Notes under the pieces: model-generated
What the model saw: the letters and a program-made list of their open reading frames with translations, nothing else
Database searches by the model: none
Told to the model about the DNA's origin: nothing
Source: Candidatus Omnitrophota bacterium
Lineage (GTDB): Bacteria; Omnitrophota; Gorgyraeia; Zapsychrales; Zapsychraceae
DNA length: 64,000 nucleotides
Assembly: GCA_020429915.1 (NCBI GenBank)
Contig: JAGQKV010000015.1
Coordinates: 1,593 to 65,592 of the forward strand
Reading direction: 5' to 3'
Program-made: the position numbers and the translations under genes
In this document: piece after piece, positions 2,662-46,603 of the stretch
How the letters are laid out: each line of letters starts with the position of its first letter
Numbering within the stretch: the stretch's first letter is position 1

Positions 2662-2814
2662 GGTGCGTCCTCCTTATTGAGGTTTTTGGGGTTGGGATAT
2701 TGCCTATGGCCTAACCAGCGGAGGGATCAGCTACATGTCAATTCTCTCCAGCAGCCTTATCACAATACACCTTGGCCAAAGGATTGTCAAATTTAAGTCA
2801 GCAGCGAGGAGGAC

Positions 2815-5883: not shown

Positions 5884-5884
5884 G

Positions 5885-7088: not shown

Positions 7089-7098
7089 AAACTCCTGA

Positions 7099-7716
7099 TT
7101 ATTCCGGCGGTTCCCGGTCAATCTCGGTATGGATGATCTGCATGTGAATATCGTACAGGACCGAGAGATAGGCGACAAAAAAGAAGGCCACGCCCAGGAT
7201 CTTGAATATTTCCTGAAACAGACTCAACGGATAGGTGTCCTCGAAAAAGTAGTCGGAGATAATCATACATCCGAAAAACATCGAGGCCACCAAAAACATG
7301 AACACGAAATTGCCGTACTGGAGGACTTGTTTGCGGTACCGGCAGATGGTGACGGCCCCGATCACGCCGAAGGCGGCCAGGACCCATTCGTCGAAAGGAT
7401 GTCCGCTCTCCCGCCCGCCGAACAAACGGAGGACGCCGCTCCCGATCCCCTCATGGATTATAAAGTATTCATCCAGACAAAGATAGAAAAAACCCAGCGC
7501 AGAAAACAGCCAGAAGTTCCAGCTTTCATAACCGTCGACAATCTTGTGATGGAGAAAATTGACCAGGGCCGCGATCAGCGACGTCCCGGCCAGGAGCAGC
7601 GCGGAAAAGAAGGTAAAGAACTCGTGCTCCTGAAAATAATGCATCGGGTCATAGTGATTAAGACCCGCGGTGGTGGCCCACAAAAAAAGCCCGACGCTGA
7701 CACCCAGCGCCGTCAA
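7099..7716 (-). CDS. Hypothetical polytopic membrane protein
   Basis: 205 aa with several hydrophobic helices and no recognisable family. It lies between the ABC-2 exporter and the receiver gene. Confidence 0.5.
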   Translation of the reverse strand: MTALGVSVGLFLWATTAGLNHYDPMHYFQEHEFFTFFSALLLAGTSLIAALVNFLHHKIVDGYESWNFWLFSALGFFYLCLDEYFIIHEGIGSGVLRLFGGRESGHPFDEWVLAAFGVIGAVTICRYRKQVLQYGNFVFMFLVASMFFGCMIISDYFFEDTYPLSLFQEIFKILGVAFFFVAYLSVLYDIHMQIIHTEIDREPPE

Positions 7717-29548: not shown

Positions 29549-30127
29549 CTAATGAATCACAAAAATCACGGTGTAGAAAACACACCAAATAATCGTCAGA
29601 AAATGCCAAAACCAGCCCACCAAGACCAGCGGCGTTTTCTCCTCAGTCGTTATTATACGGCGGCGCGTACGTAATGCCAGCCAAAATACGGCGGCCATGG
29701 CTCCCAGCACATGCACGGCGTGCAGACCGGTCATCGCGAAAATCGACGACGCCGAAATACTTGTTGCCAGGCGGATCCCTTCGCCGGCCAGCGTCTGCCA
29801 CAGCCAGAACTGCATGGCGCCGAATACGGCTCCACAGGCCAATGTGCCCCACAGGTACCGGTTGACGTCTTCGGGCCGCGATCCACCTACGGCGCGTACC
29901 GCCATCTTGTAAAAAACGCTGCTCAATAACAGGATCAATGTATTCGCCGTGGCCTGTATGAACGGTCGGTCACCCGCCCCAAACGAATACCAGTGTGTGG
30001 CCTGGACCCGCAGGACCGTATAGCCGAACAATGCCGTGGCAAAAAGCATCGACCAGGACGCCAAGGCGATCATCATGCCCAGTTGTGCCGTTTGCTGTTT
30101 TTCTTGCGGAGGGATTATTACTGTCAT
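29549..30127 (-). CDS. Second heme-copper oxidase subunit III-family protein (paralogue)
   Basis: 192-aa polytopic protein with subunit-III-like C-terminal helices (HAVHVLGAMAAVFWLALR...WHFLTIIW). It lies directly downstream of subunit I. Confidence 0.7.
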   Translation of the reverse strand: MTVIIPPQEKQQTAQLGMMIALASWSMLFATALFGYTVLRVQATHWYSFGAGDRPFIQATANTLILLLSSVFYKMAVRAVGGSRPEDVNRYLWGTLACGAVFGAMQFWLWQTLAGEGIRLATSISASSIFAMTGLHAVHVLGAMAAVFWLALRTRRRIITTEEKTPLVLVGWFWHFLTIIWCVFYTVIFVIH

Positions 30128-30134
30128 GAATAAA

Positions 30135-31892: not shown

Positions 31893-32695
31893 GGCCAGCC
31901 CCAGTCTTGCGGGACCCCGCTGTCATCCTCTTCCTCACCCCAGTCACTCCAGTCGTCGGTTTCTTCCTGCTCCTGACGAAGTTCTTCGAGCCAGGCTCGA
32001 AAGTCCTCCGGTGAATCGACGGTAAGGAATCCGCGCATCCGGTAATGTCCGTTCCCGCACAGTTCGGCGCAGGCGATCTCGAACTTTCCGCTTTCCTTGG
32101 CCTGAAACCAAAAAGAGGTGATCATGCCGGGAGTCGCATCCTGTTTGATACGAAAGTGGGGGATATAAAAGGTATGAATAACGTCCATCGGAGCCATCTG
32201 CACCACCACCGGCGTGTCGACCGGGATATGCATTTGGTTCTGCGGGGCGATGATATCGTCATCGGTGGCGAAATATCCGTCCGGACCGGCGTAGCGGATA
32301 TTCCAGGCGAACTGTTGAGGCATCACTTCCACGCGCACGACATTTGCGCCCTTGGGAAAATTCCAGAAGGCCTCCTTGAGATCCTTGAAGGCCATCGCCT
32401 CAATTACCGCGTCAATGGAGAAAAATACGGTAAAACCCAGGACCACCGTCGCTACGATATATATTTTCTTGTCACCGCGTTCATAAACCGCCTTGTGCCC
32501 GGGCCGCGCCCGGTAACGAACGATGAAATACACCAATGACAGGACAACGACCGCCATATAAATCGCGACCACTGTATCGGTGTAATGAATGACCTTGTCG
32601 ATCCGGTATCCGTCCAACGAAACATCCTGCGGAGGCTTGATAAACCAGATACCGCTCAAGGCCGAGTGGATGAGGCTTTGGAAGAGAGTTCCCAT
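31874..32695 (-). CDS. ctaC: Cytochrome c oxidase subunit II (CuA; no fused cytochrome c domain)
   Basis: 273 aa. Two N-terminal TM helices. CuA ligands H...CAELCGNGHYRM. There is an acidic C-terminal tail and no CxxCH motif, so this is aa3-type, not caa3. Confidence 0.92.
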   Translation of the reverse strand: MGTLFQSLIHSALSGIWFIKPPQDVSLDGYRIDKVIHYTDTVVAIYMAVVVLSLVYFIVRYRARPGHKAVYERGDKKIYIVATVVLGFTVFFSIDAVIEAMAFKDLKEAFWNFPKGANVVRVEVMPQQFAWNIRYAGPDGYFATDDDIIAPQNQMHIPVDTPVVVQMAPMDVIHTFYIPHFRIKQDATPGMITSFWFQAKESGKFEIACAELCGNGHYRMRGFLTVDSPEDFRAWLEELRQEQEETDDWSDWGEEEDDSGVPQDWGWPWNKKI

Positions 32696-34535: not shown

Positions 34536-36335
34536 TCAAATCTTTTCGCTGAAAATCTGCAGATTTTCCTGCATCCGGAGCAGCAACCGCGACTTCATGG
34601 TGCGGCCGTGCAGTTCCCCGTCCCGGATGGGATGCCACTTACCCGGGACCAGGACCTGAGACTGAATGAAACGTTCGATCGCGGCCTGCAGTTCATTGAC
34701 GTCGATCTTGCGCCTGACCTTGATCGCTTCGTTGACGATCCAGGTCAGACCGTCACCGGTCTTACGAAACTGGTGATTGATGACCTCGGAACGTTCGGCG
34801 ATACGCTTCATAATACTGCGGGTATTACCGCCGGCGACGCGGATCAACCGGTTGTAGCGTTGCTGGAATTCCACGGCCTTACGGCGGCGGTAGTCGTTCA
34901 GTTCCAGGTCCGCCTCCCCGGCGTACGACGCGGCCATGATCTTGCAGAAATCCTCTTCGTCCATAATCGGCCATTTCCCGGCTTCGTAGTGATGCAGGAC
35001 AAACACCGGCAGCAGGCGCAGGATATGCCGGACTAAAAACACCGGCGGATGGTCGATGCCGTCGGGGACCGGACCCTCTCCGGCCGCAGTCTTGATGTGT
35101 TCGAAGTAGTTGAGGACCTTGCGGAAATCTTCCACCCGGTCGGGGTATCGCTTCAGCAGGCGATCACACTGCGCGTGCGTGAAGCCGACGCGCCACAGCA
35201 TGCGGCGATTGCGTTCGCTGCGAAAGTGGGCGTCGAAAATTTCCAGGACCGGATGCTCGTCATAATCCTCCAACGGCTTTTTTTCACGGGTGACGATGAA
35301 ATCCGTCATCTGAATAAAGGTCTGGATGATCTTCCGCGCCCAGTAGCGCTGCTCGGTCAGGGTCGTCGAAAAACGGTCGACATCCTCATAACGGTATTTG
35401 TTGTGCTTCGCCGCGAACTGGCGGATCGACCCGTAATCCAGGATCGCGCCGCTGGCCAGCATGTTGTCGCCGTCCCACGCCAGCCAATTGAAGATATACT
35501 CCTCCTCCATGACGGCCGCCAGCCGCGCGTGCGTGCGGGTGATATACTCGAGCGCGCGCCAGTAGCGTCCCGGCGCGCTCTTGGGAAGCTCGTACACACC
35601 GTTGGCCTCCTGCCGCTGGAGAAAGTAATCGAAGGACCGTTTCAGCTCAGGGAGCTGCCCGGTCTTGAGATAACGGAACAAGTGCGCGGGACGAATCAGA
35701 TTGGGCGCGGTGCGCACACCCAGACCGGTCTTGTCCGGATATTCAATCACCGTCAGACAGCGCTCGGTAGGATATCCTTCCCGGTAAAAAATTTCCGACA
35801 TGATGGCACTGCCGAGCATCTCGTCGAGATCGGCCAGCCCCGAGGCATATCCCAATTCGTCGCTGCCGGTCGGGATCGGCCGGTCCGTTTGCTGGGCCCC
35901 CGGAGACAGGATCGTCACCCCGGTGCCGCAACTGGAAATATCGTAGGTCTTCGAACGGGTCTTGATGCATCCGTTCCAGATGCTGCGGCCGTCACCGGAT
36001 GTTTCGCCGCGTTTATTGTCGTGCTGGATCTGCAGATAACGCGTTGCCATGTACAGGCGGTCTTCGTATCCGTCTTTGGGAAAACGGCGCCGGTTGGCCC
36101 AATCGTATTCGTTGAGGATCTGCAGGGAAAAAGTCTTGAGAATGACCTGCTCGAGATTCTTGGTGATACGGCGGGTATGGTCCTTGGGAATCAGTCCCAG
36201 TTCACGGGCGAGGGGAAAATTGAAATAGATCACCCGGCCGCCGGGACGATAGCGGACCGGATAGTCGATATAGCCCTCCGGACTTACATCCCGCCAGGGA
36301 TGCGTACCGTCGATCTGATCAAACTTTTCATACAT
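34536..36335 (-). CDS. Divergent SelO/YdiU (UPF0061)-family protein adenylyltransferase-like pseudokinase
   Basis: 599 aa. GDGRSI (cf. SelO GDGRA(I/V)). SSCGTGVT...LGSAIMSEIFYREGYPTERCL (cf. KGAGLTPYS...LRSSIRE..A.EAMH.LGIPTTR). The catalytic-loop region WDGDNMLASGAILDYGSI aligns with SelO [23 protein letters not shown]. Confidence 0.5.
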   Translation of the reverse strand: MYEKFDQIDGTHPWRDVSPEGYIDYPVRYRPGGRVIYFNFPLARELGLIPKDHTRRITKNLEQVILKTFSLQILNEYDWANRRRFPKDGYEDRLYMATRYLQIQHDNKRGETSGDGRSIWNGCIKTRSKTYDISSCGTGVTILSPGAQQTDRPIPTGSDELGYASGLADLDEMLGSAIMSEIFYREGYPTERCLTVIEYPDKTGLGVRTAPNLIRPAHLFRYLKTGQLPELKRSFDYFLQRQEANGVYELPKSAPGRYWRALEYITRTHARLAAVMEEEYIFNWLAWDGDNMLASGAILDYGSIRQFAAKHNKYRYEDVDRFSTTLTEQRYWARKIIQTFIQMTDFIVTREKKPLEDYDEHPVLEIFDAHFRSERNRRMLWRVGFTHAQCDRLLKRYPDRVEDFRKVLNYFEHIKTAAGEGPVPDGIDHPPVFLVRHILRLLPVFVLHHYEAGKWPIMDEEDFCKIMAASYAGEADLELNDYRRRKAVEFQQRYNRLIRVAGGNTRSIMKRIAERSEVINHQFRKTGDGLTWIVNEAIKVRRKIDVNELQAAIERFIQSQVLVPGKWHPIRDGELHGRTMKSRLLLRMQENLQIFSEKI

Positions 36336-36341
36336 AAATCC

Positions 36342-36798
36342 TTATTGAACTTTGAAATCTGCCGAATCGGCGATGACATATCCGCCGATCTTCCAGGGGC
36401 CGCCGTTCATGCGCACCGGGGAAAGCGTCTCGATCGCCCGCGGTTTATTTTCGAACTCGGACTGAAACTGGATCACCGTCATCTCCAGGCCGGGATGATT
36501 GGGGATTTTTCCGAAGTAGCCCGAGTCAAATACCTCACGGGATTTGACCTCGCCCAAGGGGGACCGCTCGCGGCGCATCTCTTCCAGCCATTCCTCGCGG
36601 TCGACTTTGCCCTGAAAGAGCGGATGGGATTGGTTCCATCCCTCTTCGTACAAGCCCGCGTCCATCACCGCCAACCACACCAGCGTGGCCTCCAGCGTAG
36701 CCGGATCGACCTCTTTCTTTTGCGTCCATGCCGTGGTGGCGGTCAGCGTTAACACACTCACGCACAAGACCGCCACGCTCATCATCACTCGTCGCATC
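36342..36798 (-). CDS. Hypothetical secreted protein
   Basis: Start at the internal Met (MRRVMMSVAVLCVSVLTLTATTAWTQ; the cat was verified). ~150 aa. No family call. Confidence 0.45.
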
Positions 36799-37399
36799 AC
36801 AAAACCTCCGTCGTTTTCCACATCCGCGGTGCGGGGGCGCTGGACCGGCTCCTTTCGATTAACGCATTGATTCGCGGGAGCAGCAGCCCGGCGAGGAAAT
36901 CTCCGTCGCGGGCCTTGATCCGGCCACGGTCTTCGCCCTGGATCACCATATCCATCTCCCGGATGATCCGTTCCATGGCACCCACCATCCGGCCGGAGAC
37001 GATCCTGGCCCAGGCATAAACAATGGCGAAAAACAGCCACACCAGACCGAGCAGGTACGCGCCGCCGGTGTTCACCAGCGCGGTGCGCGTCAAATTCGGC
37101 GTTTGATTGATATACGTTATCAGCTCTCGCTGGCCGTAAAGGATAAGGATACTGCTGGCACTACAAAAAACAAACGTCGGGACCATGGTCATACACATGA
37201 TCGGTATCTGAAAGCGGTTGACCCGCATCAAATCGGCACGTCGCACGGGGTGGCGCATGCGTCCTCCTTGGAGTTGGTAACGATCGGGATCGGTTTGCGG
37301 TCGGTGTCATAACCTCGGGAAGCAGAATAAGTTATATTTTACAAGCAGACCGAAACGCGAACAAGTAAATTACTGAATAATTGACCGTCCGGACGGCGG

Positions 37400-37966
37400 T
37401 TAACGTGACGGGTCCAGGCCGAGGACCTGGTGTTTGACGGTGCGGTCGAAAGGCTGATCACCTACCCACGTAGCGAAGATCCCCTTGCCGAAGTCGGCCC
37501 CGGGAACGGTGCCGAGTACGCGGCCGTTATGTTCAAAACGCGTACCCGCTCCCGGGATGTAGGTCATGGCAAAGAGATCGCCCGCCTGCAGATCGACAAA
37601 TATGCCGCTCAGGGAATCGATGCGCGCCTGGACGCGACGGAACTCATCGGCAGTCATATTTTTCTCCATGCGCTTGGCGATAAAGTCGATAAAGCGGCGC
37701 GCGGTGACCGGTTTGAAGTACGAGATCTCGACACGTTTGCCCACATCATCGAGGGCATGGGTGCGATCGGTATCTTTATCGAGGTAAAAGCCCGCGACAA
37801 AAAGGTCCATAAAGAGGAGTTTTTTGGTGCTCGTCCCCAAGAGTTCCAGGGCCACGCCCCCCTCCCGGTGAGAGTCCCGGAACGAGACCTCCTTGGTTAT
37901 GTTGGCCATGACCGGAGACTGCAGGCTGAGGGCGACGAAGATTGTCAACACGGCGGTTTTACGCAT
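37400..37966 (-). CDS. Chalcone-isomerase-like (CHI-fold) periplasmic protein
   Basis: Start at the internal Met (MRKTAVLTIFVALSLQSPVMA; cat at 37964-37966). ~188 aa. The CHI-like family commonly co-occurs with cfa/DUF1365/DUF1295 clusters. Confidence 0.5.
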   Translation of the reverse strand: MRKTAVLTIFVALSLQSPVMANITKEVSFRDSHREGGVALELLGTSTKKLLFMDLFVAGFYLDKDTDRTHALDDVGKRVEISYFKPVTARRFIDFIAKRMEKNMTADEFRRVQARIDSLSGIFVDLQAGDLFAMTYIPGAGTRFEHNGRVLGTVPGADFGKGIFATWVGDQPFDRTVKHQVLGLDPSR

Positions 37967-37970
37967 ACGA

Positions 37971-39272
37971 TTACAATTGCCCGATAAACGCCTGATCCTT
38001 GTCGGATAACGCGAATTCGAGCGGATCGTTAAGATTAAGGTTGTTGGGCCTGGAATAGACAGCTTGGACCACGCTGATGTGGCGCATTTTGAAGGCCGCC
38101 TCGCAGTAGCACAAGTAGAAGTTCCACTTGCGAACAAACCGATCGTCCATGCCGAGCTTCTTGACCCGGGCGATCTGCTTGTTGAACAAATGATACCATA
38201 TTTTCAGCGTTTTGGCATATGACGGCGTCATGTCTTCGTAGTGGTGGAGATTGAGCGTGCCGGTAGCATTGATCGCCTGTTGGACGGACCGCACGCTGGG
38301 CAGCAGGCTGCCCGGAAAAATATGCTTCTGGATCCAATCCGTGTTCCGGCGGGCAATCTCGTAGCGGTGGTCCGGGAAAAGGATCATCTGGATCGCCACC
38401 AGACCGTCCTTCTTGAGGACCCGGTGAATGGTTGCGAAATACTCTTTAAGATACTTGTGGCCAACGGCTTCTATCATTTCTATCGATGCGACCTTATCAT
38501 AGGAACCCGTCAAATGTCGGTAGTCCTTCAGCTGTACGTCCACCTTCCCGGTCAGCCCGGCACGGAAGATCCGCTCCTTGGCATACTTGTACTGTTCCTT
38601 GGAAATGGTGACGGTGGTCACCCGGCAGCCGTAATGCTTCGCGGCGTGTTCGGCAAATCCTCCCCAGCCGGTGCCGATCTCCAGGACATGGTCGGTCGGG
38701 CGCAATTGCAGCTTTCGGCACAGGACCTCGTACTTGGCGAACTGCGCCTCCTCCAGCGTCTGCTGGGGGTCCTGAAAATAAGCGGCCGAGTAGGTCATAG
38801 TCGGGTCCAGCCACAGACGGAAGAAATCGTTATTCAGATCGTAGTGGTCCGCAATGTTACGACGGCTTCCGCGAAGGGTGTTCTGCCGGAACCAGCCGTA
38901 ACATTTATTGATCATTCCCACCCAATTCACCGGCGATTTCTTGTCCCGGTCGGTGGCGATCGTGGGATGATTTTCGTGATTCAACAGCATCCAGCGGATC
39001 ACATCGGTAATGTCGGCAGTACTCCAATCTCCGTCGACATAGGCCTCACCGAATCCGACCGAACCGAACAGGACGCACCGGCGGAAAAAACGCATATCAT
39101 GAATATGGATTACCGCCTCGATCTCATGACCTTTACCGTAATTCAGACGGTGTCCGTCGGGAAGGATCATGACCAGACTCCCAAGTGACATGGGCCGGAA
39201 GACCGAGTCGATAATTTTCAGGCACAGCCGGTCGAACCACCGCGGCGCAGAATCAGTGTATTTTGTATGCAC
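37971..39272 (-). CDS. cfa: Cyclopropane-fatty-acyl-phospholipid synthase (Cfa-family SAM-dependent methyltransferase)
   Basis: Cfa N-terminal region (FGSVGFGEAYVDGDW), SAM motif VLEIGTGWGG, and a C-terminal Cfa-type domain. The start is uncertain: the candidate GTG at ~39270-39272 gives a ~433-aa product, and other candidates are at 39191 and 39353. Confidence 0.85.
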   Translation of the reverse strand: MHTKYTDSAPRWFDRLCLKIIDSVFRPMSLGSLVMILPDGHRLNYGKGHEIEAVIHIHDMRFFRRCVLFGSVGFGEAYVDGDWSTADITDVIRWMLLNHENHPTIATDRDKKSPVNWVGMINKCYGWFRQNTLRGSRRNIADHYDLNNDFFRLWLDPTMTYSAAYFQDPQQTLEEAQFAKYEVLCRKLQLRPTDHVLEIGTGWGGFAEHAAKHYGCRVTTVTISKEQYKYAKERIFRAGLTGKVDVQLKDYRHLTGSYDKVASIEMIEAVGHKYLKEYFATIHRVLKKDGLVAIQMILFPDHRYEIARRNTDWIQKHIFPGSLLPSVRSVQQAINATGTLNLHHYEDMTPSYAKTLKIWYHLFNKQIARVKKLGMDDRFVRKWNFYLCYCEAAFKMRHISVVQAVYSRPNNLNLNDPLEFALSDKDQAFIGQL

Positions 39273-40041
39273 GTAGGACCTCCCTCTGTAGTTCAGGATT
39301 TTCACGCTTTTTATGATGCGGTATTTTCTTGATGAAATGCAGTACGGCGGCATGCCAGTGTATGAGAAAGATAACCTTCAGAGTGACCAGCGGTATCGTG
39401 AAGCCCACCCGTAACAGCTCGGTATTGGTCAGCGACCGGCGCTTGCCGGTCATCGTGGTGTAAAGGAACTTCCGTTCCTTTTTCAGGTCGTCGATACGGA
39501 TAAAGAGCCGCTCGCCCGGTACCTTCAGCCGGAAGTCCATCGGGACGTCCAGGTCGATAAACGGTGAGATGTAGTAGTACTTCTTCTGAACGGAACGGAA
39601 GGTGTCCTTGTGCAAAGTTTCCAGCCCCAGGAAAAACGGTTTAAGCTCGCCGAACGTATTGCCGACCTGAGCGACAGCGCAAACGGGACGGTGATCGGGA
39701 TCGAAGCAAAAATAAAAAGACACAGGATTAAACACATAACCGGCCGTACGGACGTTGGTCATCAGCATCACCCGCGCGATGGGCTCATTGACTCCCTTGC
39801 CGCGGGCATAAGCCAGCACATTCTCTTTAACGCCGGTATGACCGAAACAGATATGGTCACTGTCCCGAAATTCGAACAACGCGCGACGGTTGCGGTTGAA
39901 CAGTGGCAGCTTTTGTGACAGCGTGTCGAGTTCATCGAGATCGAGATAGAACATGTAGATCCGGTGCGTAAAGCGGTGCCGCTTGGGAGCGACCCGGCAG
40001 TGCATGACATCAAGCTCATACAGGCAGGAATTTAAATCCAT
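39253..40041 (-). CDS. DUF1365-family protein (UfaO-like candidate)
   Basis: 262 aa. Conserved DUF1365 features (…CRVAPKRHRFTHRIYMFYLDLDEL…GYVFNPVSFYFCFD…). Its partners in this cluster are the classical DUF1365 partners. Confidence 0.75.
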   Translation of the reverse strand: MDLNSCLYELDVMHCRVAPKRHRFTHRIYMFYLDLDELDTLSQKLPLFNRNRRALFEFRDSDHICFGHTGVKENVLAYARGKGVNEPIARVMLMTNVRTAGYVFNPVSFYFCFDPDHRPVCAVAQVGNTFGELKPFFLGLETLHKDTFRSVQKKYYYISPFIDLDVPMDFRLKVPGERLFIRIDDLKKERKFLYTTMTGKRRSLTNTELLRVGFTIPLVTLKVIFLIHWHAAVLHFIKKIPHHKKRENPELQREVLRAYKIH

Positions 40042-41294
40042 TTCAGCTCTCCCAAAAGCCGCTGGGCCACGTTCATTCCGGCTGTGAAACCGTCTTCGTG
40101 AAATCCGTATCTGAAATAGGCGCCGCAGAAAAAGGTGTGTCCGTTCTGGTTCAGTTGATTGAGCCGCGGTTGCGCCTTGATGGCATCCACGTCAAAGAGC
40201 GGGTGATGATACTCCTTCTCCCAAATAATCCTGCCCCGGTCGATATCTCCCGGATCATTGATCGATACAAAGTAATCCCGTTTGCGGGACACGTGCTGCA
40301 GCTTGTTCATAAAGTAAATCGTCGTCGGCAGGGTCCTTCCTTCGCGCCGTGCGATCCGGTAGTTCCACGCTGACCACGCTTTTCGGGTCTTGGGCATTAC
40401 CGAACTGTCGGTGTGGAGCGTCGCCGTATTGGGTTGGTACTTGAATTTGGACAGCAGGTGCTTCTCGTCCGGTGTGGGGTCTGCAAGAATGTCCAGACTT
40501 TGATCGGCATGCGCGGCGAGGATAACCTTGTCGAACGCATGCCGCCGGTCGTCGGCCGTCTTGATTTCAATCCGTCCCGCCTGGCGGCGCACGGCAATCA
40601 CCGGGCTGCCCAGATGCACCTTGCCCTCAAACAACGCCATCACCTTGTCGCGGTATTGCCGACTGCCGCCGACCAGAGTTTTCCATTGGTATTGGGTGTT
40701 TAGCCCCAGGAAGCCGTGGTTCTTGAAAAACCGGACCAGCGTGACGATCGGAAAATCCAGCATCTGTTCGGGCGGAGTCGACCACACCGCCGAACTCATC
40801 GGGACCAAATAGTGATCGAGCATGTCCCGTGCGTATCCCCGGTCCGTGATATAACGGTCCACGGTCCAATCGATGTACGCGTTGTCTTCCAGGACTTCGG
40901 GGGCTTCCTTATTGAAGCGGTTGATGTCCATCAACATCCGGTAGTGTCGGGGTCGAAAAAGATTACGGCGTTGCGAGAACAGGCCGTTCAGTCCGGTGCC
41001 GCAGTATTCCAGACCGGTGGGCAGGTACTGCACGCTGAACGACATGTCGGTGTCCTTCTCTTCAATATCCAGGGTCTTGAAAAATTTGAGAAGGTTCGGA
41101 TACGTCACATGATTGAAAACCATGAAGGCCGAATCGATGTGGATGTCGTCTCCGTCGTCGTCGACCGTCAGCGTGTTCGTATGCCCGCCGGCGTAATTTT
41201 CCTTGTCAAAAAAAGTGATGTCGTATTTATGGCGCAGAAAGTAACCCGCTGCCATTCCCGACACGCCCGTCCCGATGATCGCAATTTTATCCAT
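40032..41294 (-). CDS. NAD/FAD-binding amine-oxidase-like oxidoreductase (COG2907; UfaD-like candidate fatty-acyl desaturase)
   Basis: 420 aa. N-terminal dinucleotide-binding motif MDKIAIIGTGVSGMAAGYFL. The amine-oxidase fold runs full length. Confidence 0.8.
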   Translation of the reverse strand: MDKIAIIGTGVSGMAAGYFLRHKYDITFFDKENYAGGHTNTLTVDDDGDDIHIDSAFMVFNHVTYPNLLKFFKTLDIEEKDTDMSFSVQYLPTGLEYCGTGLNGLFSQRRNLFRPRHYRMLMDINRFNKEAPEVLEDNAYIDWTVDRYITDRGYARDMLDHYLVPMSSAVWSTPPEQMLDFPIVTLVRFFKNHGFLGLNTQYQWKTLVGGSRQYRDKVMALFEGKVHLGSPVIAVRRQAGRIEIKTADDRRHAFDKVILAAHADQSLDILADPTPDEKHLLSKFKYQPNTATLHTDSSVMPKTRKAWSAWNYRIARREGRTLPTTIYFMNKLQHVSRKRDYFVSINDPGDIDRGRIIWEKEYHHPLFDVDAIKAQPRLNQLNQNGHTFFCGAYFRYGFHEDGFTAGMNVAQRLLGELKWI

Positions 41295-42345
41295 GTTTGA
41301 CCTTCTTTTTCAGCTGATAGTGGCTGACCAGCCACTCCCGACCGTTGTCGTAGCCCCACAATTCGGCACACGCCATGAAGAACACCCGCCAGTAAACCCA
41401 CCATTTCCGGTATTCCTGTTCCCCGTAGGTCTGCCGCAGAATCGGCATGATCTCCACCTTATGGGCGTCCATATTGCGCAGCCAGCCTTCCGAGGTTTTT
41501 TGATAGTGGGTCCCCGGGACCTGCCAGTGTTCGGCGATGGCAAAGTCATCCTGAAAGTGGTACAGCAGATCATCCGACGGCATGATACCTCCGGTGAAAA
41601 AATAGCGGGCCATCCAGTCGTAACCGCCGTCGTCAACGGTATAGAAATAGGTGTATTTGCGATGCGTGAAGATATGGATAAACAGCTTTCCGTCATCCTT
41701 CAACCAACCCGCGATACGCTGCAGCAGCTCCTTGTAGTTGCGCATGTGTTCGAACATCTCGATAGAGACGACGCGGTCGTACCGACCCGGCGCCTCAAAG
41801 TCGTTCATATCGGCGGTGCGAATAGTGACGTTCGTAAGTCCGCGCGCCTTGGCCTGGTCTTCAATGTACTCTTTTTGTGTTCGTGAATTGGAGACGCCCG
41901 TGATCCGGCTGCCGGGAAATTTCTCCGCCATGTACAGTGTCAGCGATCCCCAGCCGCACCCGAGATCGAGGACATCCTGACCGTCGCACAGGTCGGCCCG
42001 GCCGCAGGTCAGAAACAACATGTCCTCTTCGGACTGATCGAAATCCGTGACGCCTTTCTTCCAGTATCCGCAGCTGTACTTCATATGTTTGCCCATCACA
42101 TACCGGAAGAACTCGGTCGGGACTTCGTAGTGCTGCTGATTGGCCTCGGTGGTGTTCAACGCGATGGTGGAGCTCTTCATCTCCTCAACGACTTCCTTGA
42201 GCCGCTGCTGGGCGGCCGCCACACCTCCCCGGCCTTCGTTCTTGAGCTTGCTTTTGAGCAGTCCCCGGATACCGAACCGGATGACCGGGTCCGGAATCAG
42301 ATTGCGTTCGAGAAATCCTTGACTCATGAGGGCGATGTTTTTCAT
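41287..42345 (-). CDS. Second Cfa-family class I SAM-dependent methyltransferase (UfaM-like candidate)
   Basis: 352 aa. SAM motif VLDLGCGWGS. Cfa/mycolic-acid-methyltransferase-like C-terminal region (…FEHMRNYKELL…IHIFTHRKY…). Confidence 0.8.
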   Translation of the reverse strand: MKNIALMSQGFLERNLIPDPVIRFGIRGLLKSKLKNEGRGGVAAAQQRLKEVVEEMKSSTIALNTTEANQQHYEVPTEFFRYVMGKHMKYSCGYWKKGVTDFDQSEEDMLFLTCGRADLCDGQDVLDLGCGWGSLTLYMAEKFPGSRITGVSNSRTQKEYIEDQAKARGLTNVTIRTADMNDFEAPGRYDRVVSIEMFEHMRNYKELLQRIAGWLKDDGKLFIHIFTHRKYTYFYTVDDGGYDWMARYFFTGGIMPSDDLLYHFQDDFAIAEHWQVPGTHYQKTSEGWLRNMDAHKVEIMPILRQTYGEQEYRKWWVYWRVFFMACAELWGYDNGREWLVSHYQLKKKVKHG

Positions 42346-43127
42346 GGGTTTGTCCTTTTTGGGGGTAGCGGGATCAGGACGCTGGTCGTTTCCTGATAGC
42401 GTCGGTATTCTTCTCCCCGGGATTTAAGTGATTGTTGCTCCGCCAGTGGAATGCCGGTGATTTTTAAGATGATAAAGACGATGGTCAGCGGCGACACCAC
42501 CGTCAGCCAGCCACCGGGGGTGGCCAAGGCATACAGATACACCGCCGTCCAGATGACGATCTCAAAAAAATAATTGGGGTGGCGGGAATAGGCCCATAAA
42601 CCGATCCGGCAGACCTTCCCCCGGTTATCGGCATCGTTCTGAAATGTCCGCAATTGTTCGTCGGTGATGCTTTCTCCGACAAGACCGATCACAAAAATCA
42701 ACGCCGCCGTCAGCTCCCACGCGTTCAGGCCGGTCCGCGGATTGAACGCCACGCACAGGACCGGAAGGACAACGATCATCTGTAGCAGTGCCTGAAATTC
42801 GAACAGTTTGAAGAAATTCATGCGCGCCCGCTTCCCCCATTTCCGGCGGAACATGGCGTATCGTTTGTCTTCGTGGCCCTCCTGATGCATACGTCTGAAA
42901 ATAAAGAAGATAATCCGGGCGCCCCACAGCAGAAGCAGGACCAGCAACAGTATGTTGCGTTGCGTCCAGCCGGCGCCCCGGACGATAAAGATCGCGGCCA
43001 TCATCGCGAAACCGAATCCCCATCCCATATCCACAATCGTGGCGTCATCATTGCGCAGGTGAATGAGCCAAATCAAGGCCATCATTACCGTTACCGCCAG
43101 ACATCCTGTCAGGTACGCCGTGAGCAT
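42342..43127 (-). CDS. DUF1295-family membrane protein (steroid-5-alpha-reductase / ICMT-like fold)
   Basis: 261-aa polytopic protein with a conserved C-terminal ...GLWAYSRHPNYFFEIVIW... motif. Confidence 0.75.
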   Translation of the reverse strand: MLTAYLTGCLAVTVMMALIWLIHLRNDDATIVDMGWGFGFAMMAAIFIVRGAGWTQRNILLLVLLLLWGARIIFFIFRRMHQEGHEDKRYAMFRRKWGKRARMNFFKLFEFQALLQMIVVLPVLCVAFNPRTGLNAWELTAALIFVIGLVGESITDEQLRTFQNDADNRGKVCRIGLWAYSRHPNYFFEIVIWTAVYLYALATPGGWLTVVSPLTIVFIILKITGIPLAEQQSLKSRGEEYRRYQETTSVLIPLPPKRTNP

Positions 43128-43136
43128 CCTTTCTCC

Positions 43137-43679
43137 CTATTTTTGCGGATCCTTGGATCCGTTAGCAGTGCTACCGTCCATCACGGCTTCGAGCTTAAAG
43201 AACCATTTCATCAAGAGACCGGACAACTGTTCGACCTCTTTCCGCTCCAAAAGGTAGACGGACTGCTGAATCATTTCACTGAAACCGAAAAATACTGTCC
43301 GGATGATTTCCTCCCCGGCCGGGGTAATGTGAATCAGGTTCACGCGCCGGTCATGCGCGGCCGGGACCCGGCTGATATAACCGTCCTTCGTCATCCGGTC
43401 CAGCAACCGGGTGATGTTGGAGGGCGTTACAATCATGTGGTATCCCAAATCATTCTGGGAAATCCCTTCCCCCTGCCCCATGAATTTGATCAGCATCAGG
43501 GCGTTAAACTTGACCGGCGTGAGATTGTGCGGTCGGAAGAATTCATCCATACGTTTCTCTAAAAGGGAATACACACAAAAAATGCCGTGAAAGACCTCGG
43601 CACTGGGCCGTCCTTTAATGGCGTTGAAGTAGAAATCCTTGCGCGATGGCCGGGTTGGTCCGTTAGTTTTATTAATCAT
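43137..43679 (-). CDS. MarR-family transcriptional regulator (first gene of the lipid-modification cluster)
   Basis: 180 aa. Winged-HTH region (ISQNDLGYHMIVTPSNITRLLDRMTKDGYISRVPAAHDRRVNLIHITPAGEE). Confidence 0.85.
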   Translation of the reverse strand: MINKTNGPTRPSRKDFYFNAIKGRPSAEVFHGIFCVYSLLEKRMDEFFRPHNLTPVKFNALMLIKFMGQGEGISQNDLGYHMIVTPSNITRLLDRMTKDGYISRVPAAHDRRVNLIHITPAGEEIIRTVFFGFSEMIQQSVYLLERKEVEQLSGLLMKWFFKLEAVMDGSTANGSKDPQK

Positions 43680-43715
43680 GGCTGCCTCCTGAGATTAAAT
43701 TTAACATAGCAATAG

Positions 43716-43727
43716 TTGACATGTCAA
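43716..43727. promoter_or_regulatory. Perfect 12-bp palindrome TTGACATGTCAA in the marR upstream region (candidate MarR operator overlapping a -35-like hexamer)
   Basis: Read directly, 37 bp upstream of the marR start codon. MarR regulators bind such palindromes and usually autoregulate. Confidence 0.45.
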
Positions 43728-43874
43728 ATATATTTTGAAAATAAATCGTAAGCTACTGTTTTATAACGACTTAACCGATGTCTTCGGAATTATTTACTTG
43801 ACAAACCAGCCTATTCATGTAAGATATAGTTAACAGGAGTTAACAAGAGCTAACTGAACGGGAGATTTTTCAAG

Positions 43875-44849
43875 ATGAATTTAGTCGAAATACTTTCATG
43901 GTCAGATAAAAGATCCAGAGCTTACTTAGAGTAGATCAGGTGGAACGGAAAGCCCAAATGCCCGCATTGTGGGAGCGAGGATCATGTGAGACTTAAAGGA
44001 AAGGCCCCTAGAGCCGGTGTCATTAAGTGTAAGAATAAGGAATGCCGCAAGCAGTATACCGTGACCGTGGCGACCATCTTCCATTCTTCCCACGTTCCCC
44101 TTAGAAAGTGGATCGCGGCCTACTGGCTTATGTGTTCTGCCAAAAAAGGCTATTCGGCTAATCAGTTATCCCGTGACGTAGATGTGACGTATAAGACCGC
44201 TTGGTTTATGGCCCACAGAATCCGCCACGCCATGAGATACAATTCGTTCAAGAAATTGGACGGAGACGTTGAGGTGGATGAAACTTATGTGGGCGGTAAA
44301 GCCAAAAATAAACGCCAGTCATATCACGCCAGAAAAAAGCGTGAAAAAGAACAGCGCAAGACTGGGAAAAACAGCACTAAGGTTCCGGTTATGGCTCTCG
44401 TCGAGCGTGACGGTAGCGTTAAATCTCAAGTGTTGTATCGTGTTTCGGCTAAGAAACTGAGAACGGCAATCGAATTGTATGTTGATCCGAAAGCAACCGT
44501 ACACACCGACGAGCTTCCCCTCTATCGCGGGATAGGACACAAGTTTGCTGGTGGCCATAAGACGGTGAACCATTCGATCAACGAATATGTCAACGGTGAT
44601 TGCACCACCAACACGGTGGAATCATATTTCGCCCTGCTGAAGCGTGGAGTAATAGGAATATATCACCATGTTAGCACGACTCATTTACAAAGATATTGTG
44701 ACGAATTTGTTTTCCGCTGGGATCATAGAAAACTCAGCATCGAAGAGGCTTTCAACCGCGCATTGCAGTTGAGTGATGGGAAGCGACTGTCTTATAAGGG
44801 CAGGATTAAGCGGTTTGCAGATAAGTCTTGGTGGAGAAGTGATATTTAA
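43875..44849 (+). pseudogene. IS1595-family transposase interrupted by an in-frame TAG (expected Gln codon) at 43932-43934
   Basis: The frame from ATG 43875 reads MNLVEILSWSDKRSRAYLE*IRWNGKPKCPHCGSEDHVRLKGK... and continues into the 287-aa ORF that the track starts at GTG 43986. The family consensus is ...YLEQLRW...CPxCG, so the stop sits where the conserved Gln is (CAG to TAG). Confidence 0.65.
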
Positions 44850-45130
44850 TGAGCCACGCGAACCCACAACAGCAACCAGATAAGCCAAGACTGGTTATTA
44901 TAGACTGGGAAGATAGCGTCCAACCCATAGCGCAGTGGATGTATTTATGCGACCTTGACCAACATCAGATTGTAAAGTGTCGGTCTGTTGGATGGTTGAT
45001 TGGCGATGGGCGCAGGGTCAAAGCATTGGCGCAAAATTTGGGTGATATTGGCCGTAAAGATAGCATCCAAGTCAGCGGCATACTTAAGATCCCCGCGCGC
45101 TGCATCACCAGAATTCAGGATTTAGGCTAG
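44849..45130 (+). CDS. Hypothetical 93-aa protein translationally coupled to the transposase (IS passenger or accessory gene)
   Basis: A TAATG overlap links it to the transposase stop. No family call. Confidence 0.35.
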   Translation: MSHANPQQQPDKPRLVIIDWEDSVQPIAQWMYLCDLDQHQIVKCRSVGWLIGDGRRVKALAQNLGDIGRKDSIQVSGILKIPARCITRIQDLG

Positions 45131-45143
45131 AAGGCGGTTATTT

Positions 45144-45290
45144 ACGTTTGCCCTTCGTCTCATCCTGACTGAGGACAGAAGCCCCCAACTGTCTAATTTG
45201 TCTATTAGACAGGCTGTTTGGTTCCCTCATAGCTTTGGAGGCTATGCTGGACATTTTGTTTCCTGTTTCTTTTTTTGGTTTGGTCATTTC
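45144..45290 (-). CDS. Putative small protein (49 aa, Lys-rich N-terminus) with a strong RBS
   Basis: Not in the supplied track. The minus-strand ORF reads MTKPKKETGNKMSSIASKAMREPNSLSNRQIRQLGASVLSQDETKGKRK, and an AAGGAG lies 5 nt upstream of the ATG. A perfect hairpin (GGGAGGC-ttaatt-GCCTCCC, 45306-45325) lies just upstream. Confidence 0.3.
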
Positions 45291-45430
45291 TGACTCCTTT
45301 GTTAAGGGAGGCTTAATTGCCTCCCAATCTGCTCGTCGAGGCTAGACAAAAAAACACAATAAAAAACCCGAAATATACATTGAATAGTTTAAGGCTAGTG
45401 ATAATATGGTTTTAGGGCAAAAAAAAATCT

Positions 45431-45459
45431 TTGACTTTTTTTGCAATTTTTTATATTAT
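45431..45459 (+). promoter_or_regulatory. Near-consensus sigma70-type promoter (TTGACT, 16-17 bp spacer, TATATT/TATTAT) firing toward the antisense of tRNA-like gene 1
   Basis: Read directly in the AT-rich island. Confidence 0.4.
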
Positions 45460-45485
45460 GTTGTACCTTTTAATGCTCTGTTTTG

Positions 45486-45559
45486 CGCCCCCTCCGGGAT
45501 TCGAGCCCGGAACCTCACGTTTAGCGGACGCGCGCTCTATCCAATTGAGCTAAGGGGGC
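45486..45559 (-). tRNA. tRNA-like gene 1 (class I, Arg-like body; loop CCGCUAA implies anticodon GCU; C33 and C54 non-canonical)
   Basis: The minus-strand sequence GCCCCCUUAGCUCAAUUGGAUAGAGCGCGCGUCCGCUAAACGUGAGGUUCCGGGCUCGAAUCCCGGAGGGGGCG folds as a cloverleaf. It has a 7-bp acceptor, a GCUC/GAGC D-stem with G18G19, a 5-bp anticodon stem, a 5-nt variable loop and a 5-bp T-stem. CCA is not encoded. Confidence 0.45.
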
Positions 45560-45678
45560 GACAAAACATAAAAATAGCCCGTGGCGGACATAAAAAATCC
45601 GCAACGTGGTCAAACGTTAATGATCGTGGTACAGGGCCTAATCTGACAACCACGAGCATTTCACGGGCAAATCTGAGA

Positions 45679-45714
45679 AGCCGTGTTGTCATTACTGATA
45701 GCACGGCTTTTCTT
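45679..45714 (+). terminator. Rho-independent terminator candidate on the plus strand (AGCCGTG-16 nt loop-CACGGCT followed by TTTCTT)
   Basis: Read directly. Together with the promoter at 45431 it would bracket a ~245-nt plus-strand transcript. Confidence 0.4.
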
Positions 45715-45862
45715 ATATATATAGTATTACTATGGCACGCGATTTCAATAAAAAACTAGAAAATATTGCCATTCGCTCTTTCTAATCGGAATATGGGAAC
45801 CTTCGGTCGGATGAACTTTTCCTTGCGTAGCAGTTAGTAATGGATTACTATTAAGGAGATAT

Positions 45863-45949
45863 GGGGACGGTGAGACTCGAACTCACAAATCCCGGCTAGG
45901 AGATACTGGATTAGGAATCCAGCGCGTTTGCCAGTTTCGCCACGCCCCC
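45863..45949 (-). tRNA. tRNA-like gene 2 (class II body with long variable arm, A73; anticodon loop UUCCUAA gives CCU)
   Basis: Minus strand: GGGGGCG-UG-GCGA-AACUGGCAA-ACGC-G-CUGGA-UUCCUAA-UCCAG-UAUCUCCUAGCCGGGAUUU-GUGAG-UUCGAGU-CUCAC-CGUCCCC-A. The T-arm is canonical, with U33 and A37. The ~19-nt variable region is Leu/Ser-like, which is unusual for a CCU (Arg-AGG) anticodon. Confidence 0.45.
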
Positions 45950-45965
45950 ACCCTCCCACAAAATA

Positions 45966-46067
45966 TTGCCGCTCCCAGACTTGAACTGGGACTACCAGCA
46001 CGAGAGTTGGCCCGGCCTCCTACAACCTTGCCAATAACTGGCGTGCGATCCATTACACTAAGCGGCA
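45966..46067 (-). tRNA. tRNA-like gene 3 (aberrant; canonical acceptor, D-arm and T-arm, but the anticodon-stem helix encloses a 37-nt insertion and no 7-nt loop)
   Basis: Minus strand: TGCCGCT-TA-GTGT-AATGGATC-GCAC-G-CCAGT...(37 nt)...GCTGG-TAG-TCCCAG-TTCAAGT-CTGGG-AGCGGCA-A. The T-loop TTCAAGT is canonical. The first base is T1:A72. It may be a pseudo-tRNA or a tRNA-like structured RNA. Confidence 0.35.
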
Positions 46068-46078
46068 TCCCTGTAAAT

Positions 46079-46591
46079 CTATTCCTCCCAAGCGGTTGCG
46101 GGACTATCTTGATTTGGCTCAGGCCACGGGTCAATTTCTGCGATCTTTAAGTCTTTGTCGGCGTTATACTTATAAATTGCCGGGCGTCTTCCTGAGCCGT
46201 CTTTAATCCGCTTTATAATTTCTCTGCTCTCAAGTCGGCTGCATACGTTCGAGAAGAAATTCGGTGAGCACTCAATATCTGGGTGCTTGGTGATAAAAGC
46301 CTCCTCAACATCTGTGTATGTGAATGGGCGTTCGAGTGTTTTGACGAGATCTTCAACTAGGGCTGTGCGGTTTACGGTTCGGCTAGACTTATTGGCAGTC
46401 TTTCCAATATTTCTCGACGAGGATTGGCCATTTTCTGCTGCCGAACCACGCAACACCTCTAGTGCGGCGAGTTTTTCGCGGTACTCTTTTTCGATTTGAC
46501 GCTTAAGTCGTAGGTATGTTTTATCATCAATCATATGCTCCCATCTCCTCTCAGGTGAGTCATATATTAACATAATAAGGTGGTTTGTCAA
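46079..46591 (-). CDS. Hypothetical protein, possibly winged-helix DNA-binding, immediately 5' of the tRNA-like cluster; start uncertain
   Basis: 170-aa ORF in the AT-rich island. C-terminal region FTYTDVEEAFITKHP...FFSNVCSRLESREIIKRIKDGSGRRPAIYK. It is not an integrase. Confidence 0.4.
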   Translation of the reverse strand: MTNHLIMLIYDSPERRWEHMIDDKTYLRLKRQIEKEYREKLAALEVLRGSAAENGQSSSRNIGKTANKSSRTVNRTALVEDLVKTLERPFTYTDVEEAFITKHPDIECSPNFFSNVCSRLESREIIKRIKDGSGRRPAIYKYNADKDLKIAEIDPWPEPNQDSPATAWEE

Positions 46592-46603
46592 AGGGGAAAT
46601 GCC

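Follow-up and report, generated by a model that had tools for sequence, protein, structure and literature searches.

A MarR-headed operon in Candidatus Omnitrophota and its predicted role in the synthesis of methylated furan fatty acids

What would a bacterium of the candidate phylum Omnitrophota make with two methylases of the cyclopropane synthase family, a flavin adenine dinucleotide (FAD) protein of the Amino_oxidase family and a DUF1365 protein, when all four are encoded in one operon? The question is raised by a window of 64,000 nt from contig JAGQKV010000015.1 of a Candidatus Omnitrophota metagenome-assembled genome (MAG), to which all coordinates refer unless another locus is named. 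Seven co-oriented open reading frames (ORFs) occupy positions 37400-43679 on its minus strand. The original prediction described them as a cluster led by a marR gene, and the domains stated there were recovered for all seven ORFs by Pfam search, while an independent gene caller on the identical ENA contig returned the same seven products and lengths. We consider methylated furan fatty acids (FuFAs) the probable product of the operon, at a probability of about 0.58, and from homology the products are most likely both mono- and dimethyl furan fatty acids.

The predicted desaturase and ring-forming enzyme

The enzymes of FuFA synthesis are known from Rhodobacter sphaeroides and Rhodopseudomonas palustris (Lemke et al., 2014, 2020; PMC7380195). 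They are UfaM (RSP2144/RPA2569), UfaD (RSP1091/RPA2571), the DUF1365 protein UfaO (RSP1090/RPA2570) and FufM (RPA0924). For the diene and furan steps, both of which require O2, UfaD and UfaO are necessary and also sufficient, and the accessory genes of the R. sphaeroides ufaD-ufaO operon are not needed for FuFA (PMC7380195). A homologue of each of the four enzymes is present in the window.

Deletion primers from the supplement of PMC7380195 were used as exact genomic search strings to find the R. sphaeroides locus. A 25-mer of primer Up-1089-For matched a locus on a 3.0-Mb contig, L004, with chrR, rpoE, ufaD, ufaO and the genes that follow. L004 also matches two further primer-derived strings exactly, one of them a 32-mer, and encodes the ends of UfaD and UfaO that the expression primers predict; it therefore belongs to R. 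sphaeroides 2.4.1 or a near-identical strain. The gene after ufaO, RSP1089, had been considered as Cfa-like and RSP1088 as similar to chalcone isomerase (CHI-like); in L004 they proved to be an MFS_2 transporter and a DUF3833 protein, respectively (5566-7269 of that locus), and neither has a counterpart in the window operon. A wobble-tolerant pattern for the RPA0923/0924 junction gave no match in metagenome contigs, and the merged two-primer IUPAC pattern and the RPA2570-end pattern gave none in species-representative genome contigs, negatives which are to be read with care. Indeed, the 32-mer is present in L004, yet the degenerate pattern containing it was unmatched in the species-representative genomes, and for the RPA2570-end pattern (20 plain bases) about four chance matches were expected and none was returned.

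The FAD enzyme of the window is 36% identical to R. sphaeroides UfaD over 415 of its 420 aa (277 bits), and both proteins have GxGxxG in the N-terminal part and GFHEDGF in the C-terminal part. Among solved structures, the lankacidin amide oxidase LkcE comes nearest to the window enzyme, with 116 bits; a carotene desaturase scored 26 bits and monoamine oxidase A 22 bits. By these scores the enzyme is UfaD-like and not a true amine oxidase, and it is predicted to be an FAD-dependent fatty-acyl desaturase of the UfaD type. The gene lies directly upstream of the DUF1365 gene and overlaps it, as ufaD precedes and overlaps ufaO in L004; the adjacency is found also in Aminobacter, Ralstonia, Salinivibrio and Klebsiella.

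The DUF1365 protein and R. sphaeroides UfaO are 30% identical over 250 aa (E 3e-31) and have the motifs H-x-R, FNPVSF, NTFG and SPF in common. Its AlphaFold model, with a predicted local distance difference test score (pLDDT) of 91, consists of a beta-barrel followed by a long C-terminal helix (residues 206-237). Foldseek gave weak matches to calycin-type barrels (nitrobindin, Rv2717c and the FABP-like Ycf58) with template modelling (TM) scores of 0.28-0.52. No close solved homologue was found by PDB sequence search or by Foldseek, and no cofactor site was seen in the model. We predict that the protein is the O2-dependent, furan-ring-forming enzyme. The UfaD-like and UfaO-like character that had been proposed for these two proteins was thus recovered in direct comparison with the R. 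sphaeroides sequences.

The genes of the operon are tightly packed, with the overlaps that had been predicted (Table 1). Two of the original gene limits had to be moved, although the seven ORFs stood: the CHI-like gene starts at 37966 and not at 38137, and for MT2, the longer methylase, an ORF of 460 aa was rejected in favour of the GTG start at 39272, which is preceded by a GGGAGG ribosome-binding site and gives 433 aa. The G+C content of the operon is 53-55%, the same as in the surrounding window. Three large protein searches, with the best 120 matches listed for each, returned close and mostly unnamed relatives, and the best homologues with a name are proteins of Candidatus Omnitrophica/Omnitrophota MAGs. 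No convincing intrinsic terminator was found in the 141-nt gap 3' of the CHI-like gene (z = -0.42).

Table 1. Features of the operon and of its surroundings in the window. Junctions are given between each gene and the next gene of the operon.
Feature	Position	Strand	Description	Junction with next gene
marR-family regulator, operon gene 1	43137-43679	-	180 aa; Pfam PF12802 (MarR_2), PF01047 (MarR)	9-nt spacer
DUF1295 integral membrane protein	42342-43127	-	261 aa; PF06966, E 6e-69	4-nt overlap (ATGA)
MT1, short CMAS-family methyltransferase dependent on S-adenosylmethionine (SAM)	41287-42345	-	352 aa; PF02353, E 9e-44	8-nt overlap
UfaD-like FAD protein (Amino_oxidase/NAD_binding_8)	40032-41294	-	420 aa; PF01593, PF13450	10-nt overlap
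UfaO-like DUF1365 protein	39253-40041	-	262 aa; PF07103, E 1.3e-65, 234/235 profile positions	20-nt overlap
MT2, full-length CMAS-family methylase	37971-39272	-	433 aa; PF02353, E 2e-88	4-nt spacer
Chalcone_3 (CHI-like) protein, last gene	37400-37966	-	188 aa; PF16036, E 1e-28	
Putative sigma-70-like promoter	43698..43727	-	TTGACA, 18-nt spacer, TAAATT, upstream TG; 10/12 consensus match	
Putative MarR operator	43716..43727		perfect 12-bp palindrome TTGACATGTCAA; overlaps -35 hexamer	
COX2, COX1, COX3	29549-32695	-	haem-copper oxidase	
Three genes directly downstream of the operon	34536-37258	-	153-aa protein of no family, DUF4019 protein, 599-aa protein	
Low-G+C stretch	~43700-46600		44-47% G+C vs 53-58% around	
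Transposase	43986-44849	+	IS1595/ISXO2 type	
tRNA gene	45485-45559	-		
tRNA gene	45861-45950	-		

The two methylases

The two methylases are only distantly related to each other (29% identity over 189 residues), which may be compared with the 26% reported between FufM and UfaM (PMC7380195). Both share the CMAS fold and the SAM-binding motifs of canonical Escherichia coli Cfa. On the NCBIfam Cfa equivalog NF008686, which has a cut-off of 400 bits, MT2 reached 291.6 bits and the E. coli Cfa control 701.9; the methylases adjoining ufaO in Salinivibrio and Ralstonia reached 293 and 247 bits, respectively. The best solved relatives of MT2 are cyclopropane synthases. MT2 shares 45% identity with the Salinivibrio methylase whose gene directly follows DUF1365, 38% with the one from Ralstonia and 36% with E. 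coli Cfa. The position of the MT2 gene, directly after that of the UfaO-like protein, is the one seen in R. palustris, where RPA2571, RPA2570 and RPA2569 adjoin and a proven ufaM thus stands beside ufaD and ufaO (PMC7380195). It is seen also in Halomonas sp. YLGW01, in which ufaD, ufaO and ufaM are consecutive; ufaM of this strain gave 11-methyl-octadec-12-enoate in E. coli, and its cfa raised the level of cyclopropane fatty acids (PMC12089945).

Sequences of the Halomonas UfaM and Cfa were taken from the supplement of PMC12089945 and contain drop-outs and frameshifts from optical character recognition (OCR). In tblastn, MT2 scored 279 summed bits on Halomonas UfaM vs 82 on Halomonas Cfa, and for E. 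coli Cfa the corresponding values were 168 and 381. A neighbour-joining (NJ) tree was built from 15 sequences and 323 columns with 200 bootstraps. One clade (200/200) joined all four MT2 proteins of Omnitrophota with Halomonas UfaM and with the ufaO-linked proteins of Salinivibrio and Ralstonia, and a second one (200/200) joined E. coli Cfa with Halomonas Cfa.

The same division is visible in individual residues. In five aligned and proven cyclopropane synthases (E. coli, L. acidophilus, A. aeolicus, CmaA1 and MmaA2) the sequences read YSC at E. coli positions 137-139, S(V/I)G(M/A)FEH(V/F)G at 234-242 and L(L/I)H(T/G) at 265-267, where LHT is the usual form and LIHG that of L. acidophilus. MT2 and its clade, Halomonas UfaM included, have YS(A/S), S(I/V)EM(I/F)EAVG and a Q replacing the H at these places; MT2 itself reads YSA, SIEMIEAVG and IQM. 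Numbered as in E. coli, these are substitutions of C139 by A/S, G236 by E, H240 by A and H266 by Q. Cys139, His240 and His266 are kept in 5/5 of the aligned synthases, and MT2 has none of the three. The part of PMC3132707 that cites Courtois and Ploux (2005) gives C139, E239, H266 and Y317 as the residues of the bicarbonate site, at which MT2 has A139, E239, Q266 and Y317. From the alignment this signature is a mark of the UfaD-associated clade. As a proof of a product other than cyclopropane it was rejected, since the substitutions occur in genuine plant cyclopropane synthases: cotton GhCPS1 and GhCPS2, in which an FAD domain is fused to a Cfa domain, have S139 and Q266 and make cyclopropane fatty acids (PMC3132707). 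MT2 is predicted to be of the UfaM type, a cis-vaccenate 11-methyltransferase.

The shorter methylase, MT1, gave a different picture. The solved structures closest to it are the coclaurine, pavine and tetrahydroprotoberberine N-methyltransferases of plants, with 270 bits (E 3e-79, residues 15-347) for coclaurine N-methyltransferase (CNMT; 6GKV) vs 101 bits for E. coli Cfa. It is without the N-terminal domain of Cfa and scored 173.2 bits on NF008686. Its identity to the methylases linked with DUF1295 in Ralstonia and Shinella is 46-47%. FufM (Q6NBA4) is 37.9% identical to Arabidopsis At4g33110/LIME1 (PMC10940516), a protein annotated as putative coclaurine N-methyltransferase (PMC3388832), and the distance of MT1 from the plant CNMT/LIME branch is about that reported for FufM.

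Parts of FufM could be read from the fufM primers. RPA0924 begins with MSGLASL, in an ATGA overlap with the stop codon of RPA0923; a primer approximately 1030 nt into the gene encodes DEWGV, and the gene, with a length of approximately 1.05 kb, ends in RLKPA and stop. The MT1 family has the C-terminus G-x-EW(G/I/L)V(S/A)HY(R/Q/L)(L/F), as in EEWGVSHYRLRPAGTRS of Shinella and NEWGVAHYRFVKR of Ralstonia, each directly before the stop. This C-terminal tail was found in none of the Cfa or UfaM-type proteins compared. The primer-derived peptides, the gene length and the ATGA coupling fit the MT1 family. Translational coupling to an upstream gene, as in RPA0923/RPA0924, is seen for MT1 and DUF1295, and the ATGA form of their junction is common to the window and Shinella. 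MT1 most likely belongs to the FufM/LIME1/CNMT branch and would be the second, furan-ring methylase; because the published identity places FufM in this branch, the second methylase most likely serves to make dimethyl furan fatty acids. We observed in addition that MT1 is far more conserved across phyla than its neighbours, with 60-74% identity to Omnitrophota/Bacteroidota proteins among the matches listed, including 63% to a Mucilaginibacter mali protein, and at least 8000 homologues.

The original prediction had divided the labour otherwise, with one methylase making the methyl-branched intermediate and the other making cyclopropane lipids. The first half agrees with the placement of MT2. The second half amounts to a monomethyl furan made through one UfaM, with an ordinary cyclopropane synthase working in parallel, which we consider improbable. 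Both methylases do match Pfam CMAS, with the Cfa model as the best NCBIfam model for each, and MT1 keeps the equivalents of all four E. coli bicarbonate-site residues, C139, E239, H266 and Y317. However, MT1 falls far below the Cfa cut-off, is closer to coclaurine-type N-methyltransferases than to Cfa, and is placed in the FufM family by the published identities and the primer-derived peptides. FufM itself left 18:1 unmethylated in vitro (PMC7380195), and the genes of MT1 type are coupled to DUF1295 across phyla and do not stand in Cfa contexts. Neither a tight grouping of the methylases with canonical Cfa nor a grouping of the FAD enzyme with amine oxidases, both named in advance as findings that would count against a furan pathway, was seen.

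The predicted route and its alternatives

We propose that the operon would remodel the acyl chains of existing phospholipids by the route of R. sphaeroides and R. palustris, with a chemistry that we infer from homology. Firstly, MT2 would use SAM to convert a cis-monounsaturated chain, such as cis-vaccenate, to the methyl-branched trans-olefin 11Me-12t-18:1. The FAD enzyme would then add a conjugated double bond, with O2 as electron acceptor, to give 11Me-10t,12t-18:2, into which the DUF1365 protein would insert one O2-derived oxygen atom and close the furan ring to yield 9M5-FuFA. Finally, MT1 would methylate the ring to the dimethyl 9D5-FuFA. DUF1295, translationally coupled to MT1, and the apparently exported CHI-like protein would have accessory roles.

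DUF1295 matches Pfam Steroid_dh in addition (E 8e-10), and its homologues are named 'steroid 5-alpha reductase family enzyme' by JGI. Its AlphaFold2 (AF2) model has a pLDDT of 93, and Foldseek aligned it with PbSRD5A (7C83), sterol delta-14 reductase (4QUV) and human SRD5A2 (7BW1) with probability 1.0 and TM 0.52-0.59; for ICMT (5VG9) the probability was 0.51 and TM 0.38. The modelled fold suggests that DUF1295 is a membrane C=C reductase that depends on NAD(P)H. The best Foldseek E-value belonged to chain 8XKU_G of the Arabidopsis Ycf2-FtsHi chloroplast import motor (18% over 146 columns, probability 1.0), which ranks above the steroid reductases for this model.

The operon may instead modify acyl chains to a product that is not a furan: cyclopropane or cyclopropene, methyl-branched or conjugated-diene chains. 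We regard this as unlikely, though it is the alternative that deserves the most attention. The chemistry of the UfaD- and UfaO-like proteins would then differ from that of their namesakes, and DUF1295 could, just as doubtfully, saturate a methylated or methylene intermediate made by MT1 to a methyl branch. The fold of DUF1295 is that of NADPH-dependent C=C reductases, and its translational coupling to MT1 would suit such a role. The synthesis of 10-methyl (tuberculostearic) acid pairs a methylase with a reductase. The identity to UfaD and UfaO is no higher than 30-36%, and the plant UfaD-like FAD-Cfa fusions with H266Q and C139S, substitutions which MT2 shares as C139S/A and H266Q, make cyclopropane fatty acids (PMC3132707). 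On the other side, the FuFA steps are the only functions shown for a DUF1365 protein or for a stand-alone protein of the UfaD type, and the motifs shared by these families are kept in both window proteins. Also, Halomonas UfaM, the bacterial enzyme in the MT2 clade whose product was measured, forms the FuFA precursor, and all four pathway enzymes stand together in one operon.

Very improbable, in our view, is a substrate other than a fatty acid, i.e., an amine, an alkaloid-like compound, a quinone or an isoprenoid, on which MT1 would act as an N-methyltransferase, the FAD protein as an amine oxidase and DUF1295 as an isoprenoid or steroid reductase. The alkaloid N-methyltransferases nearest to MT1, the Pfam Amino_oxidase match and the LkcE structure for the FAD protein, and the likeness of DUF1295 to steroid and sterol reductases are the observations that such a substrate would account for. 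Yet the FAD protein is far closer to UfaD than to LkcE or monoamine oxidase A, and for DUF1365 and the UfaM-type MT2 the functions are lipid functions only. The plant alkaloid N-methyltransferases are a specialised offshoot of a family whose member LIME1 is located on lipid droplets and linked to FuFA (PMC10940516).

Several points weigh against furan fatty acids as the product. The support consists of homology, at 30-36% identity to characterised UfaD and UfaO, and of synteny. The methylase tree holds 15 sequences and was computed by NJ only, and its Halomonas pair carries the OCR frameshifts. Given that the cotton enzymes share the substitutions of MT2 and still cyclopropanate, the product cannot be read from the signature or the clade. 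The link between FufM and MT1 is indirect, through literature identities and 11 primer-derived residues, and MT1, with its complete set of bicarbonate-site residues, could from its sequence be capable of cyclopropanation. The dispensability of the accessory genes in R. sphaeroides, and a literature that reports no phenotype for RPA0923, imply that DUF1295 and the CHI-like protein may stand outside FuFA synthesis proper. Repression by MarR, described below, is read from the position of the operator alone.

Compared with the Proteobacteria, the arrangement differs in several respects. The four enzymes are in one operon here, while ufaM is located elsewhere in R. sphaeroides and fufM elsewhere in R. 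palustris. The regulator is a MarR protein and not the sigmaE-ChrR pair found beside ufaD in R. sphaeroides, and the accessory genes encode DUF1295 and the CHI-like protein instead of an MFS (major facilitator superfamily) transporter, DUF3833 and a short-chain dehydrogenase/reductase (SDR). The host belongs to a non-phototrophic candidate phylum, and its UfaD and UfaO homologues are distant from those of R. sphaeroides, at the identities given above. In plants the same four families occur as the lipid-droplet proteins UFAM1/UFAD1 (At3g23510, an FAD-Cfa fusion), UFAO1 (At1g30130, DUF1365) and LIME1/FUFM1 (At4g33110). These enzymes are eukaryotic and in part fused, those of cotton and Sterculia make cyclopropane and not furan, and the FuFA role in plants is hypothesised.

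Regulation, related loci and significance

The marR gene is preceded by an AGGAGG ribosome-binding site and, 19 nt upstream of its ATG, by the promoter-like site of Table 1. The palindrome TTGACATGTCAA, found once in the whole 64-kb window, was found again upstream of marR in the related Omnitrophota-type locus L005, where it lies within a perfect 20-bp palindrome, TTAGTTGACATGTCAACTAA; a search for the marR palindrome upstream of other genes had been suggested in the original prediction. In a second related locus, L007, a variant, TTGATATATCAA, stands at the same place. Promoter and palindrome are conserved across the three marR upstream regions compared. The layout is that of a classic autorepressed MarR operon, in which MarR, bound to the palindrome at the -35 hexamer, would repress the whole operon until released by a signal. 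The inducing context is likely ultraviolet (UV), photo-oxidative or O2 stress, as related loci adjoin UV-repair genes.

The window MarR reached no NCBIfam equivalog cut-off. It has a single cysteine, Cys35, which is conserved in the L005 and L007 orthologues. An OhrR-type peroxide sensor was considered and set aside as no more than a lead, OhrR being absent from the 60 best PDB matches. The cysteine would align with Cys15 of Bacillus subtilis OhrR.

Five other Omnitrophota-type loci have the order DUF1295-MT1-FAD-DUF1365-MT2, and the identity of their DUF1365 proteins to that of the window is 50-65%. With the core order recurring in this way, the cluster is not a product of chance. L005 has the same architecture as the window, with MarR at the head and Chalcone_3 at the end. 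L007 is headed by MarR-DUF1475 and its core is accompanied by YceI, NmrA and Chalcone_3. L013 has the same head, a pyrimidine-dimer glycosylase gene between DUF1295 and MT1 within the core, and Chalcone_3 and lipocalin genes. In L006 and L014 the core is headed by PAS-GerE genes (1-723 and 2617-3441 of these loci, respectively), with UvdE in the former, and UvdE, Chalcone_3 and lipocalin in the latter. A further locus, L012, has MT1-FAD-DUF1365-MT2 without DUF1295, no visible regulator, and genes for GTP cyclohydrolase I and UvdE. The small PAS and GerE (LuxR-type helix-turn-helix, HTH) proteins heading L006 and L014 recall light sensors of the LOV-HTH type.

Outside Omnitrophota, all six non-regulatory gene types of the window were found on the Ralstonia wenshanensis megaplasmid, in the order FAD-DUF1365-Cfa-like-DUF1295-MT1-like-DUF2878-lipocalin-CHI-lipocalin-cryptochrome, beside cryptochrome/photolyase genes. 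A Shinella plasmid carries sigma-ChrR-DUF1295-MT1-like with a 4-nt overlap, and DUF1295 and MT1-like genes are paired as a conserved module in Proteobacteria. In Shinella and Aminobacter the genes adjoin an extracytoplasmic function (ECF) sigma factor and ChrR. Salinivibrio and Klebsiella have SDR-FAD-DUF1365 together with downstream DUF2878/DUF3833 genes, and the Salinivibrio cluster includes a Cfa-like gene and is preceded by MerR and photolyase genes. The gene order of the window, with the DUF1295-MT1 pair first, differs from that of the sigmaE-ChrR/MerR stress clusters of Ralstonia, the Salinivibrio kushneri chromid and Shinella, and MarR or PAS-GerE in the Omnitrophota loci replace the sigmaE-ChrR or MerR of the Proteobacteria. 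The UvdE, pyrimidine-dimer glycosylase, GTP cyclohydrolase I, lipocalin and YceI genes of the Omnitrophota loci belong to the same stress theme as in Proteobacteria. In the green alga Chlamydomonas, singlet oxygen induces CFA1, CFA2, one DUF1365 gene and one DUF1295 gene; CFA2 is elsewhere in the same paper annotated as coclaurine N-methyltransferase. The cluster is an Omnitrophota version of a widespread UV/photo-oxidative stress gene set. Within 10 kb on either side of the operon, no ECF sigma factor, ChrR or photolyase gene was found.

The CHI-like protein has a signal-peptide-like stretch at its N-terminus, MRKTAVLTIFVALSLQSPVMA, and appears to be exported. No solved relative was found by sequence search of the PDB. 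Genes of the Chalcone_3 family are part of the corresponding clusters in L005, L007, L013 and L014 and of that on the Ralstonia megaplasmid. As a speculation to which we give little credence, DUF1295 and the exported CHI-like protein could form a salvage branch for spent furan lipids, in a regenerable membrane antioxidant cycle. Singlet oxygen or a peroxyl radical may open the furan to an electrophilic dioxo-ene chain, which DUF1295, acting as an enone reductase, could convert to a 1,4-diketone, to be cyclodehydrated back to the furan. The idea is based on the co-occurrence of DUF1295 and CHI-like genes with FuFA enzymes from Omnitrophota to Betaproteobacteria, and on the co-induction of the green-algal DUF1295 gene with CFA and DUF1365 genes by singlet oxygen. 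If it were true, the furan would be a catalytic antioxidant and not a sacrificial lipid, and MarR might sense lipid oxidation products through its conserved cysteine.

The surroundings of the operon suggest that the host meets O2. Haem-copper oxidase genes lie approximately 5 kb downstream (Table 1), and some Omnitrophota classes are predicted to be aerobes (PMC10066038); a supply of O2 for the UfaD and UfaO steps is therefore plausible. The three genes directly downstream are conserved in L005. The 599-aa protein among them has a faint match to SelO/YdiU (NCBIfam E 9e-8, and a faint Pfam SelO match in L005), and an ABC-F ATPase gene is next. On the other side of the operon, the low-G+C stretch between marR and a DUF4126 gene contains the transposase, two odd tRNA genes and small ORFs. 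As DUF4126 abuts marR directly in L005, the stretch looks like an insertion. In both tRNAs the body and the anticodon are unusually combined. The class I tRNA (45485-45559, 75 nt) has the anticodon GCU (Ser AGY) and C instead of U at position 33, and the class II tRNA (45861-45950, 90 nt) has the anticodon CCU (Arg AGG), a D stem of 3 bp and a long variable arm. Codon reassignment by these tRNAs was considered and is not visible: in DUF1365 and DUF1295, AGG codons stand at R/K columns and AGC codons at an S column that is invariant.

The same set of genes was known before from Proteobacteria and involves no new mechanism. What is new is Omnitrophota as the phylum, MarR in place of sigmaE-ChrR or MerR, and all modules in one operon; in the literature searched, we found no paper linking Omnitrophota with furan fatty acids. 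FuFAs are rare, O2-dependent, radical-scavenging and membrane-protecting lipids, so far tied mainly to Proteobacteria, algae, plants and fish. If methylated furan fatty acids are indeed the product, their range would extend to Omnitrophota, an uncultured and mostly ultra-small phylum. The four biosynthetic genes, with DUF1295 and the CHI-like gene, would then form a compact cassette for dimethyl FuFA within 5.7 kb and behind one promoter. The residue signature and the tree provide a working way to stop enzymes of the UfaM and FufM types from being annotated as cyclopropane fatty acid synthase. Furthermore, the operon would be a marker of the Omnitrophota lineages exposed to oxygen, light or UV, and its product would be a lipid biomarker for their environments.

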